Assembly (NCBI GenBank): GCA_964016885.1
Contig: OZ024742.1
Coordinates: 350,176,001-350,240,000 of the forward strand
From: Eledone cirrhosa
Taxonomy: Eukaryota
Reading direction: 5' to 3'
DNA length: 64,000 nucleotides
Position 1 is the stretch's first letter; the number at the start of each line of letters is the position of its first letter. The notes under the pieces are model-generated. The model was not told the DNA's origin, ran no database searches, and saw only the letters and a program-made list of their open reading frames with translations. Shown one piece after another: positions 1,850 to 60,935 of the stretch. A program made the translations under genes and the position numbers.

Positions 1850-2168
1850 TGTATTAGACAGCGAGTTTTTTTTTCAAGTTGAAAAAAAAACCGAGAGGTC
1901 CTACACGAGTGAAAGTATAAGGAAAAAAGATGAAATCGAAAATGCAACTGAAGTCTTTTTTTCTTTTTAATATATATTTGGTTCCTTTACCGGTTTTGAG
2001 ATGGAGGATTTATGATTTTTCTCACATCTGTGAGCAAAACCACAATTTCTCCATCTCAATTCTACTTTTGAAAAGTACAAGAACTGCGAAACCGGTAAAG
2101 GAACCAAATAAATATATATTTATAAAAAAAAGACTCCAGTTGCATTTTCGATTTCATCTTTTTTCCCT
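1850..2168. mobile_element. Family A non-autonomous PLE-type fold-back insert
   Basis: 1921-1996 is the reverse complement of ~2089-2167. Same family at 5143-5330, 26155-26345 and 35817-36080. Flanked by TA. Confidence 0.75.
2065..2100 (+). ncRNA. Type I hammerhead ribozyme, family A (U3-A8)
   Basis: ctt TTGAAAA gta caagaac tgc GAAA ccgg TA aag. Palindromic stem III accggt. Confidence 0.7.
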
Positions 2169-2171
2169 ATA

Positions 2172-3639
2172 TCTATATATATAAAACTGTGGTTGTCTGT
2201 CTGTCTATCGATTTTTGGCACACATCTCCTCTTAGAATCTCTCACGGAATTGCACCGAAATTGCTATACTTGTACATTGAGCCCTAGCGAAGACATCGGA
2301 AAAAAAATATTTCAAATTGACCCGCCCTATCTGACGAAATCGAATATAATGTATCGATTTTTGAGCGTAAGTGATCAGTTATTTCCCTTTGTTCTGTTTA
2401 CATTGAGCGTCTGCGTGCAAAAATTAAAAAAATTACGCTCGCTTTCTCAGCGTTTAAAATGACATTAACACAATAATTTTTACTTGAAAACAAGTCTATT
2501 TAAAGACTACGTAAAACAAGCAAATATTTCGTAAAAAGAAGCAAAAATTATATAAGTTTATTTAAAATATATGTATCTGTAAATTTCGTTAGGCGTGCAG
2601 TCAGTTTTATATATATAGATGATAAACAATAATATCCTCTATGAGGTCACTAAACCTGCTAGAAACAGAAGCTAACTCTCCCTCATATCACACCACTCCC
2701 TACTGTCTTAAATTTAGAAAACGCATATCCTCTATGAGGTTACTAAACCTGCTAGAAACAGCAGCTAACTCTCCCTCATATCACACCACTCCCTACTGTC
2801 TTAAATTTAGAAAACACATATCCTCTATGAGGTTACTAAACCTGCTAGAAACAGCAGCTAACTCTCCCCCATATCATACCCCTCCCTACTGTCTTAAATT
2901 TAGAAAACATATCTTCTATGAGGTCACTAAACCTGCTAGAAACGGCAGCTAACTCTGCCTCCTATCACACCCCTCCCTACTGTCTTAAATTTAGAAAACA
3001 TATCCTCTATGAGGTCACTAAACCTGCTAGAAACAGCAGCTAACTCTCCCCCATATCACACCTCTCTCTACTGTCTTAAATTTAGAAAACATATCTTCTA
3101 TGAGGTCACTAAACCTGCTAGAAACAGCAGCTAACTCTCCCTCATATCACACCACTCCCTACTGTCTTAAATTTAGAAAACACATATCCTCTATGAGGTC
3201 ACTAAACCTGCTAGAAACAGCAGCTAAATCTCCCTCATATCACACCACTCCCTACTGTCTTAAATTTAGAAAACACATATCCTCTATGAGGTCACTAAAC
3301 CTGCTAGAAACAACAGCTAACTCTCCCTCATATCACAACCCTCCCTACTGTCTTAAATTTAGAAAACACACAGACAACCATGCAGAACAACTCCATCGCA
3401 GCTCTGTTGTTCGGCTGGCATCGTCTACTCGCGTGTTGCGCAAGTACTGTGAAACAATAAATTTCAACACTTTTTTGCACAGAGATAATATCCATAGGCG
3501 AAACTACAATTGTCACTGCTGGCGCAGCTCATGCTTCCAGGTCTGCAATTCATTCACCCAGTGCCTGGCAGACAAAAAAGTGCTGCAACCTAACTTTGGT
3601 AACTTAATGACCCCGAGCAACGCCGGGCTTTAATGCTAG
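2172..3639 (+). mobile_element. Non-autonomous Helitron
   Basis: 5' TCTATATATATAAAACTG followed by (GTCT)n; 3' hairpin cccgagcaacgccggg then CTAG|T; inserted between A and T. Confidence 0.7.
2633..3370. repeat. ~93-bp tandem repeat, about 8 copies
   Basis: Unit ctatgaggtcactaaacctgctagaaacagcagctaactctccctcatatcacaccactccctactgtcttaaatttagaaaac repeated head to tail. Confidence 0.95.
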
Positions 3640-3683
3640 TATATATATATATATATATATATATATATATATATATATATATA

Positions 3684-3848
3684 TAACGAAGGAAATGTGG
3701 TAAGGAACCAGGTGGACCATAACGCACCAAAGTACTCAATACTTAGGGTAGTAGAGTGGGTAATAGGAACGAGTAGGACCCCGACGGCTGAGCTCAAGCC
3801 GTTTCGACGGCTAATTCAGGACGAGTCCAGAATTAGCCGTCGTTCCTA
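3684..3848. mobile_element. Family B short fold-back insert
   Basis: Minus copy of GAAA cggct tgagctc agcc GTC ggggtcc plus ~90-nt tail, then a short plus arm; between (TA)n tracts. Confidence 0.75.
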
Positions 3849-4539
3849 TATATATATATATATATATATATATTTGTGTGCGTGCGTACGTAATTCGAAT
3901 TATTAATTCACTTATTGAGAATACACACACATTTGAGTGTGTGTATTTCCGCAGATACCAATTATCTTTCGCTTACATACACATACTTCAGAATACACAC
4001 ATATTCACGAATACATACATACATAAATACACACACACACACACACACACGCACACGCACACACACACACACACACACACACACACACACACACACACAC
4101 ACACACACACACACACACATACACCCCACACGCACATATATATATGTATATACACGTGTGTGTTATAGGTGTGTGTATTGTATTACTGGCAAATTTTCCA
4201 GAAAGATAGATTCTTTCACGAAACCTTGACTTGGGATAGCTTAAGAAAGAATTCAAGTATTCAATTTTCGTGCCATAGTAATACTCATAGATTCTAAGTA
4301 GCTCACTACTGTTATCTAGTGCCATCACAAGTACAGCAAGTGCTCTCTGTATATGGAATAATCCTGTCAAATATACGCCTTAAAATATAATTGGAATGGA
4401 GACGGATATGATATGAAAAAGATATATATATAGACAGTACAGGCAAATACTTGAAAGACTTGTATTTAAACTCCACCGTGAACACCTAAAATATCACACG
4501 GGCCCTCTTCATCATCTGCTCAAATAATGGTACTCTCAC

Positions 4540-4802
4540 AATCATCATCATCATCATCAACATCGTCGTCGTAATCATTGTCGTCATCATCAGCCTCCTT
4601 ATCAGCGTCATCATCAGCGTCATCATCATCATCATCATCATAACTATCACCAACATTGTCATCCTTATAGACATCATCCTCACCACCATGACCACCATTA
4701 CAACAATCATCATCACCCTCATCATCATTGTCATCCTTGTCGTCGTCGACACCATCGTCCTCACCGTCGTAATCATCATCGTCGTTCTATGTCATTACCA
4801 CC
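4540..4802. repeat. Degenerate (CAT/CGT)n microsatellite
   Basis: Visible trinucleotide repeat. Confidence 0.9.
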
Positions 4803-58572: not shown

Positions 58573-58763
58573 GGGCGTTGGATTGGCAGTATCGGTAGAG
58601 GGTCGGACGCCTTGCTTTGTAGCATAGAGTTAAGGCCCTTTATCATCTGAGTTCAAATCCCAACAAGGTTAAATTTGCCTTTCATCCTTACGGGGTCGAT
58701 AAAATAAAGTACCAGTAATGTGCTGGGTAATTGCTGGCCTTGTGCCAAAAGTAGAAACAATTA
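58573..58763 (+). mobile_element. tRNA-type SINE, full length
   Basis: A-box tggcagtatcgg, B-box gagttcaaatcc, core and tail. Confidence 0.88.
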
Positions 58764-58817
58764 TTTCCAGACAGTAATCTGTGAATTAAAGAGATGTGGT
58801 GGTGATAATAATAATGA

Positions 58818-59166
58818 TAGTAGTAGTAGTAGCAGTAGTGGTAGTAGTAGTAGTAGTAGTAGTAGCAGTAGCAGTAGTAGTAGTAGTAGTAGTAGTAGTA
58901 GTAGTAGTAGTAGTAGTAGTAGTAGTAGTAGTAGTAGCAGTAGTGGTAGTAGTAGTTGTAATACTAGTAGTAGTAGTAGTAGTAGTAGTGGTAGTAGTAG
59001 TAGTCGTAGCAGCAGTAGTAGTAGTAGTGGCAGTAGTAGTAGTAGCAGCAGCAGCAGCAGCAGCAGCAGTAGTAGTAGTAGTAGTAGTGGCAGTAGTAGT
59101 AGTAGTAGCTACAGCAGCAGCAGTAGTAGTAGTAGTAGTAGTAGTAGTAGTAGTAGTAGTAGTAGT
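58818..59166. repeat. (AGT/AGC)n microsatellite
   Basis: Visible repeat. Confidence 0.97.
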
Positions 59167-59935
59167 AATAGATAAACAAACATAATGGAGATAAACAACT
59201 TTATCTCCATTATCCCCCTTTCCATCTTCTCCCTCCATCCTATTCACCCACACCTTCCTTTGTCTTGTCTGTCACCGTCTACCTCATTATTTATGCAGTA
59301 CTATATCCTATTTTTTGTGGAAACTTGGCAGAGTCGTTAGAAGGCCGCATGCTTGGTGGTATTAATTCCGGCTTACTGTGCTCTTTCATTCCAAATAACG
59401 TCGAGATCACCATTGACTTTCATCCTCCGGAGCTCGATCAAAGAAATATGGAAACCAATACAGTACATGGGTTGTTTTTTCTTTATATATTTTGACTACT
59501 CTCTCTCTCTCTCTCTCTCTCTCTCTCCTTTATGGAAGGTATAAGTGCGTTCAGATCTGGAGAGAGGATAAATTCCAACATTTCTAGAAAGTGTCCTTGA
59601 CGTATGGACACTTACACTCCTACGACTCCATCAGGAGTTACCGGTTCTTATATACATTTCTAAGTTATCTCACACCTCATTCAAATCGTATTCTATTAAC
59701 TTTTACTTTTTCTTTATATTCTTCCCCTTTCTGTTGATAGCTTTCAGTATTGTTTGTCAGACTATTTATCGGTGTACATTCGCTACCTTCCCCACCAATA
59801 TCAAAGACATTTCTACCGTGTTCCTCTTTCAACTTTATAGAAAAGAGGAATGTAACTACTTTATTGAATTACAGCTGGTCATTGGAAGAATCTTGAGAGA
59901 TGTACTAGTAGAGAGAAATGGATACAAACCCCTGT

Positions 59936-60095
59936 GGGTGGATTGGCAGTATCGGTAGAGGGTCGGCCCTTTATGGTCTGAGTTCAAATCCCACCGAGGT
60001 TAACTTTGCCTTTCATCCTTACGGGGTCGATAAAATAAAGTACCAGTAATACACTGGTTTAATTGCTGGCCTTGTGCCAAAAGTAGAAACAATTA
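59936..60095 (+). mobile_element. tRNA-type SINE with short internal deletion
   Basis: Matches 58573-58763. Confidence 0.88.
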
Positions 60096-60758
60096 TAAAG
60101 TTCCGACGGAAACCTTATATTGAAGCACCTTTATAAATCTCTGGTGTGATTAAGCATTTTCATTAAGGGCAGACATTTTGAGAATTGTTTACTTAATACT
60201 ATGAAAGACATACGACTGGAGAGAAGGGATTAAATAAAGTTATTTACTAGGAAGTCTTACACATTTACATAATTATTTTTTTCTTTAGTACCTCAAACCT
60301 CGTCATTTATATCTATTTCTCGTTACATTTAATATATGAGACTTCACATATCATTATCAAAGTGATACCCAAATTAATTATTTAAAGAGATTAAGTTGTA
60401 TTCCGTACTTTCATAAGGTTTTGTCATACAGATAGATACACATTATATATTATAACATTTCTTCGTAAATTTAGTTAGCCCAAGGGAAGTAAATAGTATT
60501 AAGAAATAACAACTGAAAGCTAATGAGATATCCAAAGATATAGACAGAGAAATTGCAATGATATCACATTAGGAAATATCACGGTATAGTATATAATCTA
60601 TGTTGTGGCCATGTGATAATTATTGTAGGTTCTATCACACTCATACATACATCCCCCACTCAACACACGTGTGCGTGCGCGTTTACATAGATACATATGC
60701 ATACACACAAATATACATATATATATATATATATATATATATATATATATATATATAT

Positions 60759-60935
60759 AAGTAGTAACACAACAGTTAGTTCACCATACCGAGGACAATT
60801 GTTTCACCTAGTCATAAGGTGTAACAATTGTTCTCGGTATGATGAACTAACTGTTGTGTTACTACTTGTACCTAACTCGTCCCATGGACTGAGTGCTCTA
60901 CTACTACAGATATTACCTTCCAGTGTTCTACCCCC
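60759..60935. mobile_element. Fold-back insert carrying the 3' half of an HHR
   Basis: Arms 60759-60809 and 60817-60867; minus arm reads aggt GAAA caattg TC; tail motif ctgagtgctc. Confidence 0.75.

Follow-up and report, generated by a model that had tools for sequence, protein, structure and literature searches.

The window analysed here is a 64,000 nt stretch of the Eledone cirrhosa assembly GCA_964016885.1 (contig OZ024742.1, positions 350,176,001–350,240,000, forward strand), and all feature coordinates are window positions. It carries head-to-head insertions in which one arm ends in a tail that the other arm lacks (Table 1). PLE1, PLE2 and family B are, by their sequence, endonuclease-bearing (EN+) Penelope-like retroelements (PLEs); the Penelope identity put forward in an initial annotation of this DNA is borne out for these three. 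Each of them has a pLTR from partial tandems, an inverted 5' copy and a tail that overlaps the start of the ORF.

Table 1. Elements and hairpins in the window, with the arrangement of their long and short ends.
Feature	Position	Strand	Description
Family A hairpin	1850..2173		Long left, short right; putative PLE
Family B hairpin	3686..3846		Long arm left; short arm with small deletion
Unnamed hairpin family	6818..7221		81 nt tail
Family D	23726..24804		Inverted long arm and partial tandem of 433 nt unit; read-through of long site at ~24432 (TAT match)
PLE1 long arm	28725..30748	-	5'-truncated RT and C-terminal GIY-YIG, 3' UTR; end at long site (+59)
PLE1 tail	28725..28783	-	58–59 nt; codons 8–28 of the element's ORF
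PLE1 short arm	30737..32119	+	End at short site (+4); internal deletion of ~600 nt
Minimal type I hammerhead motif (candidate), PLE1 short arm	31909..31955	+	~165 nt before short site
One-armed PLE1 copy	32229..32540	-	Long end
Family A hairpin	35818..36079		Short left, long right
Family B hairpin	37556..37714		Long/short
PLE2	37733..41122		Hydra-type RT and GIY-YIG (by motifs); 310 nt inverted long arm, 3 kb direct copy, short end beside (TC)36
Family B long insertion	41231..43650		Short arm holds GIY-YIG C-terminus, 92% to intact B protein
Family F	47621..48417		Short arm left, long arm right
Family J	53828..54389		Perfect 214 nt hairpin and 135 nt tail
Family B hairpin	54514..54707		Long/short
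Unnamed hairpin family M	54742..54960		Long left, short right
Unnamed hairpin family O	54993..55270		140 nt tail
Family B hairpin	55285..55475		Long/short
PLE1b	55494..58122		Long arm 55494–57790 (-), short arm 57822–58122 (+)
Short hairpin family	60759..60935		Short left; tail ends at (CT)n

Domain profiles pick up GIY-YIG (E = 6e-5) and RVT_1 (E = 2e-4, below the cut-off) in PLE1, the near-full copy of which is frameshifted. Family B has an open frame of 749 amino acids, which lies intact in near-identical arrays and in which RT and GIY-YIG motifs are recognized by eye; this protein has no Pfam match, and a PDB search returned no relative. The broken frame of PLE2 encodes a protein 37% identical to that of family B. 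Compared with the description in PMC8557442, family B shows the RW(R/K), DKT, CxCX5C linker, CxxC and CxH motifs without CCHH, and the Hydra-type motifs of PLE2 are read in its C-terminal part only; from these motifs both families are classed as Hydra-type. PLE1 has a C-terminal GIY-YIG, a CX4CxxC linker (CX2-5CxxC in the same description) and CCHH, and on its motifs would be of Neptune/Nematis type, fitting either of these two clades. Pattern scans pick up a candidate minimal type I hammerhead core in the pLTR of PLE1 and none in those of family B or PLE2, and Rfam gives no hammerhead match. The PLE1 motif is mirrored on the minus strand at ~28990. Families A, D, J and F and the unnamed families have the same end geometry as the PLEs. 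The terminal region of family F is related to PLE1, the 433 nt unit of family D is non-coding and tandem, and family A has at most 499 nt of common upstream sequence among 30 loci, with no consistent link to an ORF.

The two arms of PLE1 begin at almost the same element position and differ in where they end. In PLE1, PLE1b and family F the short arm stops at ...TAACA/(AT)n (32116, 58119 and 47620, respectively), and the long arm extends 58–59 nt beyond this point. Corresponding short stops are seen in family B (37715, ~54705 and 55476; tail of ~80 nt), family A (~2167; 62–72 nt), family D (24805; ~61 nt), family J (53827; ~135 nt) and PLE2 (41122; ~160 nt). The unnamed families at 6818–7221, 54742–54960, 54993–55270 and 60759–60935 have the same long/short layout, with a TA match of 1 nt only in the last copy. 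The short ends named in the initial annotation are found within a few bases of where it placed them. Its reading of the family D junction as tacat/TA has to be replaced by ...CATACT/TATA, and for PLE2 the short/long asymmetry stands while the window copy has (TC)36 and not (TA)n next to its short end.

Genome-wide, exact counts give 29,080 PLE1 arms with the 22-mer preceding the short site and 11,791 that run from the short site directly into (AT)5, and a pattern count gives 22,007 long ends of family B, which has roughly 30,000 arms. Among the retrieved loci, 3' ends abutting (TA)5+ lie within 14 nt of the short or the long site in 114 of 115 cases for PLE1 and 106 of 107 for family B. Head-to-head pairs from these loci whose two ends both lie in TA repeats follow the long/short pattern in 61/62 cases for PLE1 and 67/69 for family B, or 128/131 together; the three symmetric pairs (L119, L316 and L340) are all short/short and none is long/long. 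Both the bimodal end positions and the rule of one long and one short end per two-armed insertion had been anticipated in the annotation. Family A follows the same pattern (25/26 retrieved pairs). On inspection, two apparent short/short neighbours proved to be separate insertions. A de novo hairpin scan, in which 72 of 238 rows appeared symmetric, was left out of the pairing count because these rows mostly reflect TA runs within arms or adjacent insertions.

An unbiased sample was taken from the first 100 anchors of contig C1, which gave 73 records. All 37 two-armed insertions with both ends resolved are long/short. Four records have a short end together with a 6–24 nt remnant of the long end, ten are one-armed and joined straight to the microsatellite (five long, five short) and 22 are unresolved or broken. 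The long/short rule holds for two-armed insertions only. It extends to tandem and array insertions resolved at both ends (7/7 for PLE1 and 4/4 for family B), where either end can be distal, and a full-length copy is capped by either a long or a short end. Short-ended arrays of 11–16 kb face long arms of 31–282 nt (L190, with a 31 nt arm opposite 11 kb, and B2), and short-ended stubs face long-ended arrays in L188 and B1. Among 61 PLE1 pairs the arm reaching further 5' is the long one in 22 and the short one in 23, with 16 ending within 15 nt of each other, so that no fixed arm order is seen.

The long site is internal and is not the RNA's 3' terminus, as tandem copies continue past it into the ORF in PLE1 (475 matches), family B, family D and PLE2 (1/13 distinct loci); in family J read-through occurs in 0/11 distinct loci. 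In all four read-through families the long site has the same TA match of 3–4 nt as the short site. The sites match (TA)n by 3–6 nt and are spaced 58–160 nt apart across families, and both junctions have the polarity of a target 3'-OH joined to cDNA. Two-ended integration with a TA match at the short site, as initially suggested, is upheld. The accompanying scheme, in which the first strand is primed at the RNA 3' tail and the second end alone uses an internal site, is not supported: the long site too is internal and TA-like, and either end can cap a copy and either arm can be the further-5' one. In two cases the long arm ends at -1 or -6, the position expected of a short-site primer. Since the 3' UTR holds longer TA runs that do not serve as ends, the protein likely selects the sites through RNA features. 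Likely candidates are the two AATATCG motifs that flank the PLE1 tail (read-through copies L160–L179) and, in the Hydra-type family B and PLE2, an RCTC..GAGY hairpin downstream of each site. A shared fold joining both PLE1 sites is not supported (z = -1.25).

The target-site duplication was read from interruptions in the TA flanks. In 38 loci picked prospectively for a G or C within the short flank, an exact duplication of 12–16 nt is present in 19 (7/13 for PLE1 and 12/25 for family B) against a background of 2/61, with a mode of 14 nt and exactly 14 nt in 14 loci. Two loci have 28–30 nt and 17 have no exact duplication; later mutation in the TA runs is a likely, if putative, source of the missing and odd cases. 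In the retrospective set a duplication is seen in 10/86 loci, compared with 0.95 in shuffled data. A duplication of ~14 nt is present in two PLE clades. L370 has a 14–15 nt duplication in a non-microsatellite target and no added TA run, and synthesis of TA by the element is therefore not required. A search for the empty allele over 53300–55470 in contigs of four sequencing runs gave repeat-derived pieces only and no empty site. Reconstruction of empty sites from repeats gave a match for 6/69 insertions, of which one is informative: L188, inside family M, is flanked by 34 + 29 nt of TA, compared with ~26 nt in most empty family M copies and 62 nt in one.

Our preferred reading, drawn from genomic footprints, is that these head-to-head insertions, with one long end, one short end and a 14 nt duplication, probably arise when the two nicked strands of the target both start reverse transcription on the same RNA, at a pair of internal TA-like sites whose positions are fixed. 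A protein dimer would nick the strands 14 nt apart to leave 3' overhangs, each of which would pair with one of the two RNA sites. The two cDNAs would copy overlapping RNA, either with strand displacement or from separate units of a molecule that is multimeric or circular; template jumping or microhomology would then join them head to head, and each would template the second strand of the other. The tail would then be the RNA between the two priming sites. Cleavage and extension of both strands and initiation at two internal sites have been described in vitro for a PLE protein with a predicted dimeric form (PMC11167929). The short/short pairs (3/131), the 17/38 loci without an exact duplication and the one-armed (10/73) and unresolved (22/73) records count against double priming, as does the absence, in the Poseidon element of that study, of homology between the DNA that is cut and the site of initiation (Frangieh 2024).

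The likeness of partner arms bears on the number of templates. Partner arms agree at 467/482 diagnostic sites, against 0.47–0.71 for other arms; raw identity, by which the partner is the best match in 13/33 cases, is a weak measure and was replaced because short old arms are uninformative. Private A-to-G marks are common to both arms in all five informative loci that make up the sample (20/21, 27/27, 25/25, 9/11 and 87/87), and one marked 26-mer occurs genome-wide only in the two arms of a single insertion. In each arm it is the sense strand that carries the marks, with T-to-C near zero, and a sense RNA template is thereby indicated. Twin priming on two separate RNAs in an asymmetric dimer, with arm likeness due to origin from the same source locus or to gene conversion afterwards, would avoid placing two enzymes on the same stretch and suits both the weak correlation of arm lengths (rho = 0.34) and the rare short/short pairs. 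The private edit patterns, one of them unique in the genome, make it distinctly improbable.

Shared marks fit one RNA read twice and copying of one arm off the other as DNA alike, and at C1:2.08 Mb, one of the five marked loci, a short-first fold-back accounts for the marks just as well. Overlap between the arms reaches ~1.3 kb and is absent only for a few long arms that consist of tail alone. More centres than expected are near-perfect palindromes (7/37 within 15 nt, against a permutation mean of 2.15; p = 0.004), which counts against double priming since DNA fold-back would give the same, and deletions near pair centres are seen. One cDNA could thus prime at the long site and fold back, its sense copy being joined, at the short TA-like site, to the other end of the target and later central deletions randomizing the arm lengths; strict pairing and a duplication are also expected of such a route, as are the common marks, the palindromes and the central deletions. 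Fold-back is nevertheless unlikely given that the short arm lies further 5' in 23/61 pairs, that the large short-ended arrays of L190 and B2 face minimal long arms, that five one-armed insertions are short-ended and that the long site is not an RNA end. `EN-mediated resolution' is proposed in PMC8557442 and self-priming on an antisense template in PMC3846280, and a self-primed or double-stranded intermediate might accordingly be cut by the endonuclease at the element's own TA-like sites before its ends are joined to the target. Both sites resemble the target, the centres are palindromic and the tail is reportedly needed for endonuclease recognition (as cited in PMC11167929), yet the sense-strand A-to-G marks in both arms indicate a sense RNA template and the in vitro start sites were mapped as reverse-transcription events (PMC11167929), so that we give this route very little weight.

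A one-sided tail and two start sites have been published previously (Craig 2021; Frangieh 2024). In the literature searched, which excludes the supplements of PMC8557442 and PMC11167929, we found neither the 14 nt duplication measure nor the short TA match shared by the two sites. Craig 2021 names as open questions the tail, the bias towards microsatellites and how the tandem and inverted structures of PLEs originate; in Frangieh 2024 the steps after initiation are left unvalidated. Double priming, if true, would likely explain the long-puzzling one-sided tail of Penelope elements. The wider claim, for which we see the chances as evenly balanced, is that PLEs of at least two clades integrate by concerted double priming, with a dimer cutting 14 nt apart and each overhang going to one of a programmed pair of TA-like sites on one and the same RNA, which would often be a multimer or a circle. 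A single reaction would then yield the tail, the inverted arm, the tandem array and the duplication and would need no conventional primer for the second strand, which would make it a third integration chemistry alongside the LINE and LTR types. The footprint provides numbers that can be tested by assay: two start sites per family, each used once, a nick spacing of 14 nt and one RNA per event. For annotation, tens of thousands of TA-flanked hairpins in the E. cirrhosa genome are truncated retroelement pairs and not DNA-transposon MITEs.

In LINE-1 twin priming both target strands prime on one RNA to give a head-to-head inversion; there the first primer uses the poly(A) end, the position of the second site varies and the arms share hardly any sequence. 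The PLE insertions resemble this in their head-to-head product and in the proposed priming of two strands on one RNA, and differ in that both sites are fixed and internal, with no priming at a poly(A) end, and in that the arms overlap. Among PLEs, the Hydra clade as described in PMC8557442 shares with family B and PLE2 the RW(R/K), DKT, CxCX5C linker, CxxC and CxH motifs, the absence of CCHH and a (TA)n target, whereas our scans of family B find no canonical hammerhead core. The Neptune/Nematis PLEs of the same description have a C-terminal GIY-YIG with linker and CCHH and a pLTR hammerhead, and PLE1 is alike in the endonuclease, linker and CCHH and has a candidate hammerhead core. The inverted-pLTR EN+ insertions with a one-sided tail described in PMC8557442 and PMC3846280 have the same general layout as those seen here. 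The tail is given there as 30–40 bp and `optional', compared with 58–160 nt on exactly one arm in 128/131 pairs, and the target duplications as often not discernible in microsatellites and 8–10 bp in Adineta, compared with a modal 14 nt. In vitro, Poseidon PAc of Anolis uses two internal start sites that bound the tail, cuts and extends both strands and is predicted to act as a dimer, as we propose for the present elements (PMC11167929); the main text of that study holds no account of two-site pairing within one insertion. Initiation by PAc takes place in an AC-rich stem-loop that has no homology with the DNA that is cut (PMC11167929), whereas here both sites match the target by 3–6 nt and each is used once.

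(TA)n is abundant throughout the window, and self-comparison together with ORF analysis reveals numerous fold-back inserts bounded by TA runs. Three of these carry frames for a Penelope-type reverse transcriptase with a C-terminal GIY-YIG domain, and the outer ends of each are element 3' ends on both sides; the two inverted copies (arms) are thus arranged head to head. The initial annotation had described a long end that keeps a tail and a short end that stops at an internal TA-like site, and these junctions were located in the window to within a few bases; the tails measure 58 to ~160 nt. 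Within the window, deviations comprise the short end of the Penelope-like element (PLE) family PLE2, which adjoins (TC)36, a copy at 60759 with a match of only 1 nt and one-armed copies such as 32229-32540. The hairpin family D, which follows the same end rule as the PLEs, may be a retrozyme-like passenger. The frame matching STPRs is followed by what we take to be a Helitron-like stretch.

Genome-wide, the 22-mer preceding the short site of family PLE1 identifies 29,080 arms, and 11,791 PLE1 arms pass directly from the short site into (AT)5; family B, a third PLE family, has 30,432 arms. In the fetched loci, 3' ends adjoining (TA)5+ lie at either of the two sites in 114/115 cases for PLE1 and 106/107 for B. 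An unbiased sample, the first 100 anchor matches on another contig (C1), gave 73 records. Two-armed insertions account for 37 of them, every one long/short, while four consist of a short end with a tiny long remnant, ten are one-armed (five of each end type) and 22 are unresolved or broken. When every fetched locus is counted, including those picked on purpose, the long/short arrangement holds for 61/62 PLE1 pairs and 67/69 B pairs whose ends both lie in TA, and the hairpin family A gives 25/26; independently chosen ends would be expected to give about half. The three exceptions in PLE1 and B are short/short. The apparent long/long rows turned out to be read-through junctions, where the element copy continues past the long site. 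One long and one short end per two-armed insertion is thus borne out.

The long end had been interpreted as the 3' terminus of the RNA. Matches extending beyond the long site number 475 in PLE1, and the 20 such loci that were read show an identical continuation into the ORF, with the tail corresponding to codons 8-28. In family B, read-through occurs in tandem arrays (unit 3,543 nt with a 749-aa frame), and D (in the window) and PLE2 (locus L290) likewise read through. The long end is thus no RNA terminus but another internal site of TA-like sequence; the observation of the initial annotation is confirmed, as is its internal TA-like short site, and its interpretation is partly supported. AATATCG is present at both PLE1 sites, spaced by 58 nt, and TAT starts both B sites. 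A longer TA run ~160 nt upstream in PLE1 is never used as an end, so a TA match by itself is insufficient to select a site. On folding, B and PLE2 show an RCTC..GAGY hairpin after each of their two sites, as do two unnamed families after the short site (6/14 sites); PLE1 and the hairpin families D, A, J, M and O lack it within 48 nt of their sites. Runs of (TC)n, (CA)n or (AAT)n that separate an element end from (TA)n mirror the last bases of the element, which suggests microsatellite birth through slippage at the junction.

At subfamily-diagnostic sites, partner arms are concordant at 467/482 positions in 16 pairs, versus fractions of 0.47-0.71 for other arms. Rare copies also carry sense-strand A-to-G tracts, which we infer to be of ADAR-type origin. 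These marks are common to both arms at 20/21 positions in locus L112, 25/25 in L370, 9/11 in L372 and 87/87 in L375; at C1:2.08 Mb, 27/27 are common to the arms and are also found in the upstream unit, with 0/27 in the distal unit. Eight of 11 further edited loci have no arm overlap on the tract or no partner. Shared marks may also stem from DNA-level copying between arms. A marked 26-mer from L112 has two genomic occurrences, one per arm, and thus no donor copy carrying the mark; one edited PLE1 pattern has 13 matches genome-wide. Taken together, the shared marks support an origin of both arms from one RNA. In PLE1 copies L112, L150/L069 and L369-L379, dense tracts of this kind abolish the putative hammerhead core.

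All full-length or tandem insertions resolved at both ends are long/short (PLE1 7/7, B 4/4), and their distal end can be either. In L190 an 11-kb short-ended array faces a 31-nt long arm, and B1 has the reverse arrangement with a long-ended array. Among 61 PLE1 pairs, the arm reaching further 5' is the long one in 22 and the short one in 23, with 16 level. Were a long-first cDNA to fold back, large one-sided deletions would be needed to leave the short arm the longer of the two, and the tail is not part of a short-first cDNA. Counting against this argument, level centres are over-represented (7/37 versus a permutation mean of 2.15, p = 0.004), as fold-back could also produce.

Target duplication was followed through interruptions in the TA flanks. 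Retrospectively, a marked string is common to both flanks in 10/86 rows (~6 of them mis-called read-throughs) versus 0.95 in shuffles, with a mode of 14 nt; once the 29 loci found through a flank-containing query are set aside, the figure is 3/71 versus 0.28. A prospective set of 30 PLE1 and 30 B loci was selected by requiring G or C in the short flank alone, and 38 of these have a partner within 1.5 kb. An exact 14-nt duplication is found in 14/38, one of 12 or 16 nt in five and one of 28-30 nt in two; none was seen in 17, including L340, which is actually short/short. As background, 2/61 unselected long flanks have G or C at 8-12 nt. The target of L370 is not a microsatellite; its duplication measures 14-15 nt, and no TA run has been added. 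These duplications and L370 indicate that the target pre-exists insertion.

Twin priming is known from LINE-1. We consider a twin form of target-primed reverse transcription the probable mechanism here: both target strands would be nicked ~14 nt apart to give 3' overhangs whose tips match TA at two fixed sites on a single RNA, each overhang would prime a cDNA at one of them, and the two cDNAs would then be joined head to head. One-armed insertions would be events with a single productive priming, and level centres could arise where the trailing enzyme catches up with the leading one. The units of arrays of 3-5 PLEs are 99-100% identical, and for this reason a multimeric or circular RNA template is suggested. 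The 55-nt repeats in one such array look as if the enzyme had jumped repeatedly at the join.

Coordinates of the window and of features in it and on contig C1
Location	Feature	Remarks
C3:350,176,001-350,240,000	Window	Genome 3.0 Gb
Window 10320-10949 (-)	Frame with Pfam STPRs match	E 7e-7
Window 12541-12950	B-like copy	Beyond the long position, plus arm reads into different sequence (not TA) plus a frame of unassigned type
Window 23726-24804	Family D	433-nt non-coding tandem unit; hammerhead-like core by eye
Window 44482-46100	Third PLE, truncated at its 5' end	Linker resembles that of Neptune, frame broken; flanked by TA runs, no inverted arm
Window 28330-28531, 50903-51305, 52190-52629, 58568-58766, 62681-62881 and others	~200-nt high-copy repeat (self-comparison)	Partly tandem dimers; not linked to TA runs
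Window 41123, 60935; L273-L285; L243, L250	(TC)n, (CA)n or (AAT)n runs	At element ends
C1:437.198-437.214 Mb; C1:63.065-63.076 Mb	Individual insertions, 11-16 kb each	3-5 near-identical PLE units
C1:91.489-91.493 Mb (L226/L227)	~64 head-to-tail copies of 55-nt family-B ORF piece	At head-to-head junction of 4.5-unit array
C1:132,947,049-132,947,579 (L242)	Twelve 46-nt repeats	Across PLE1 long site

The one-sided tail is itself a known PLE feature. PMC8557442 describes a 30-40 bp tail, frequently at one end only, attributes it to endonuclease resolution and states that target duplications in microsatellites are often indiscernible. PMC3846280 places the tail on one inverted pLTR, with 8-10-bp duplications, and proposes self-priming on an antisense template; the N-rich inserts of Adineta Penelopes described there resemble a long asparagine/threonine-rich low-complexity stretch in the N-terminal third of the PLE1 ORF (L150). 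Element ends are not addressed in the available portion of bioRxiv 10.64898/2026.07.22.740005. A literature search that left most subscription journals and all supplements outside its scope returned no statement of strict pairing, PLE twin priming or a 14-nt duplication. With a quantified pairing rule, twin TA-matched sites and a 14-nt spacing, a long-open mechanism becomes testable. Two internal start sites that bound the tail have been mapped in PMC11167929, without homology to the target, whereas those of the Eledone PLEs are TA-matched.
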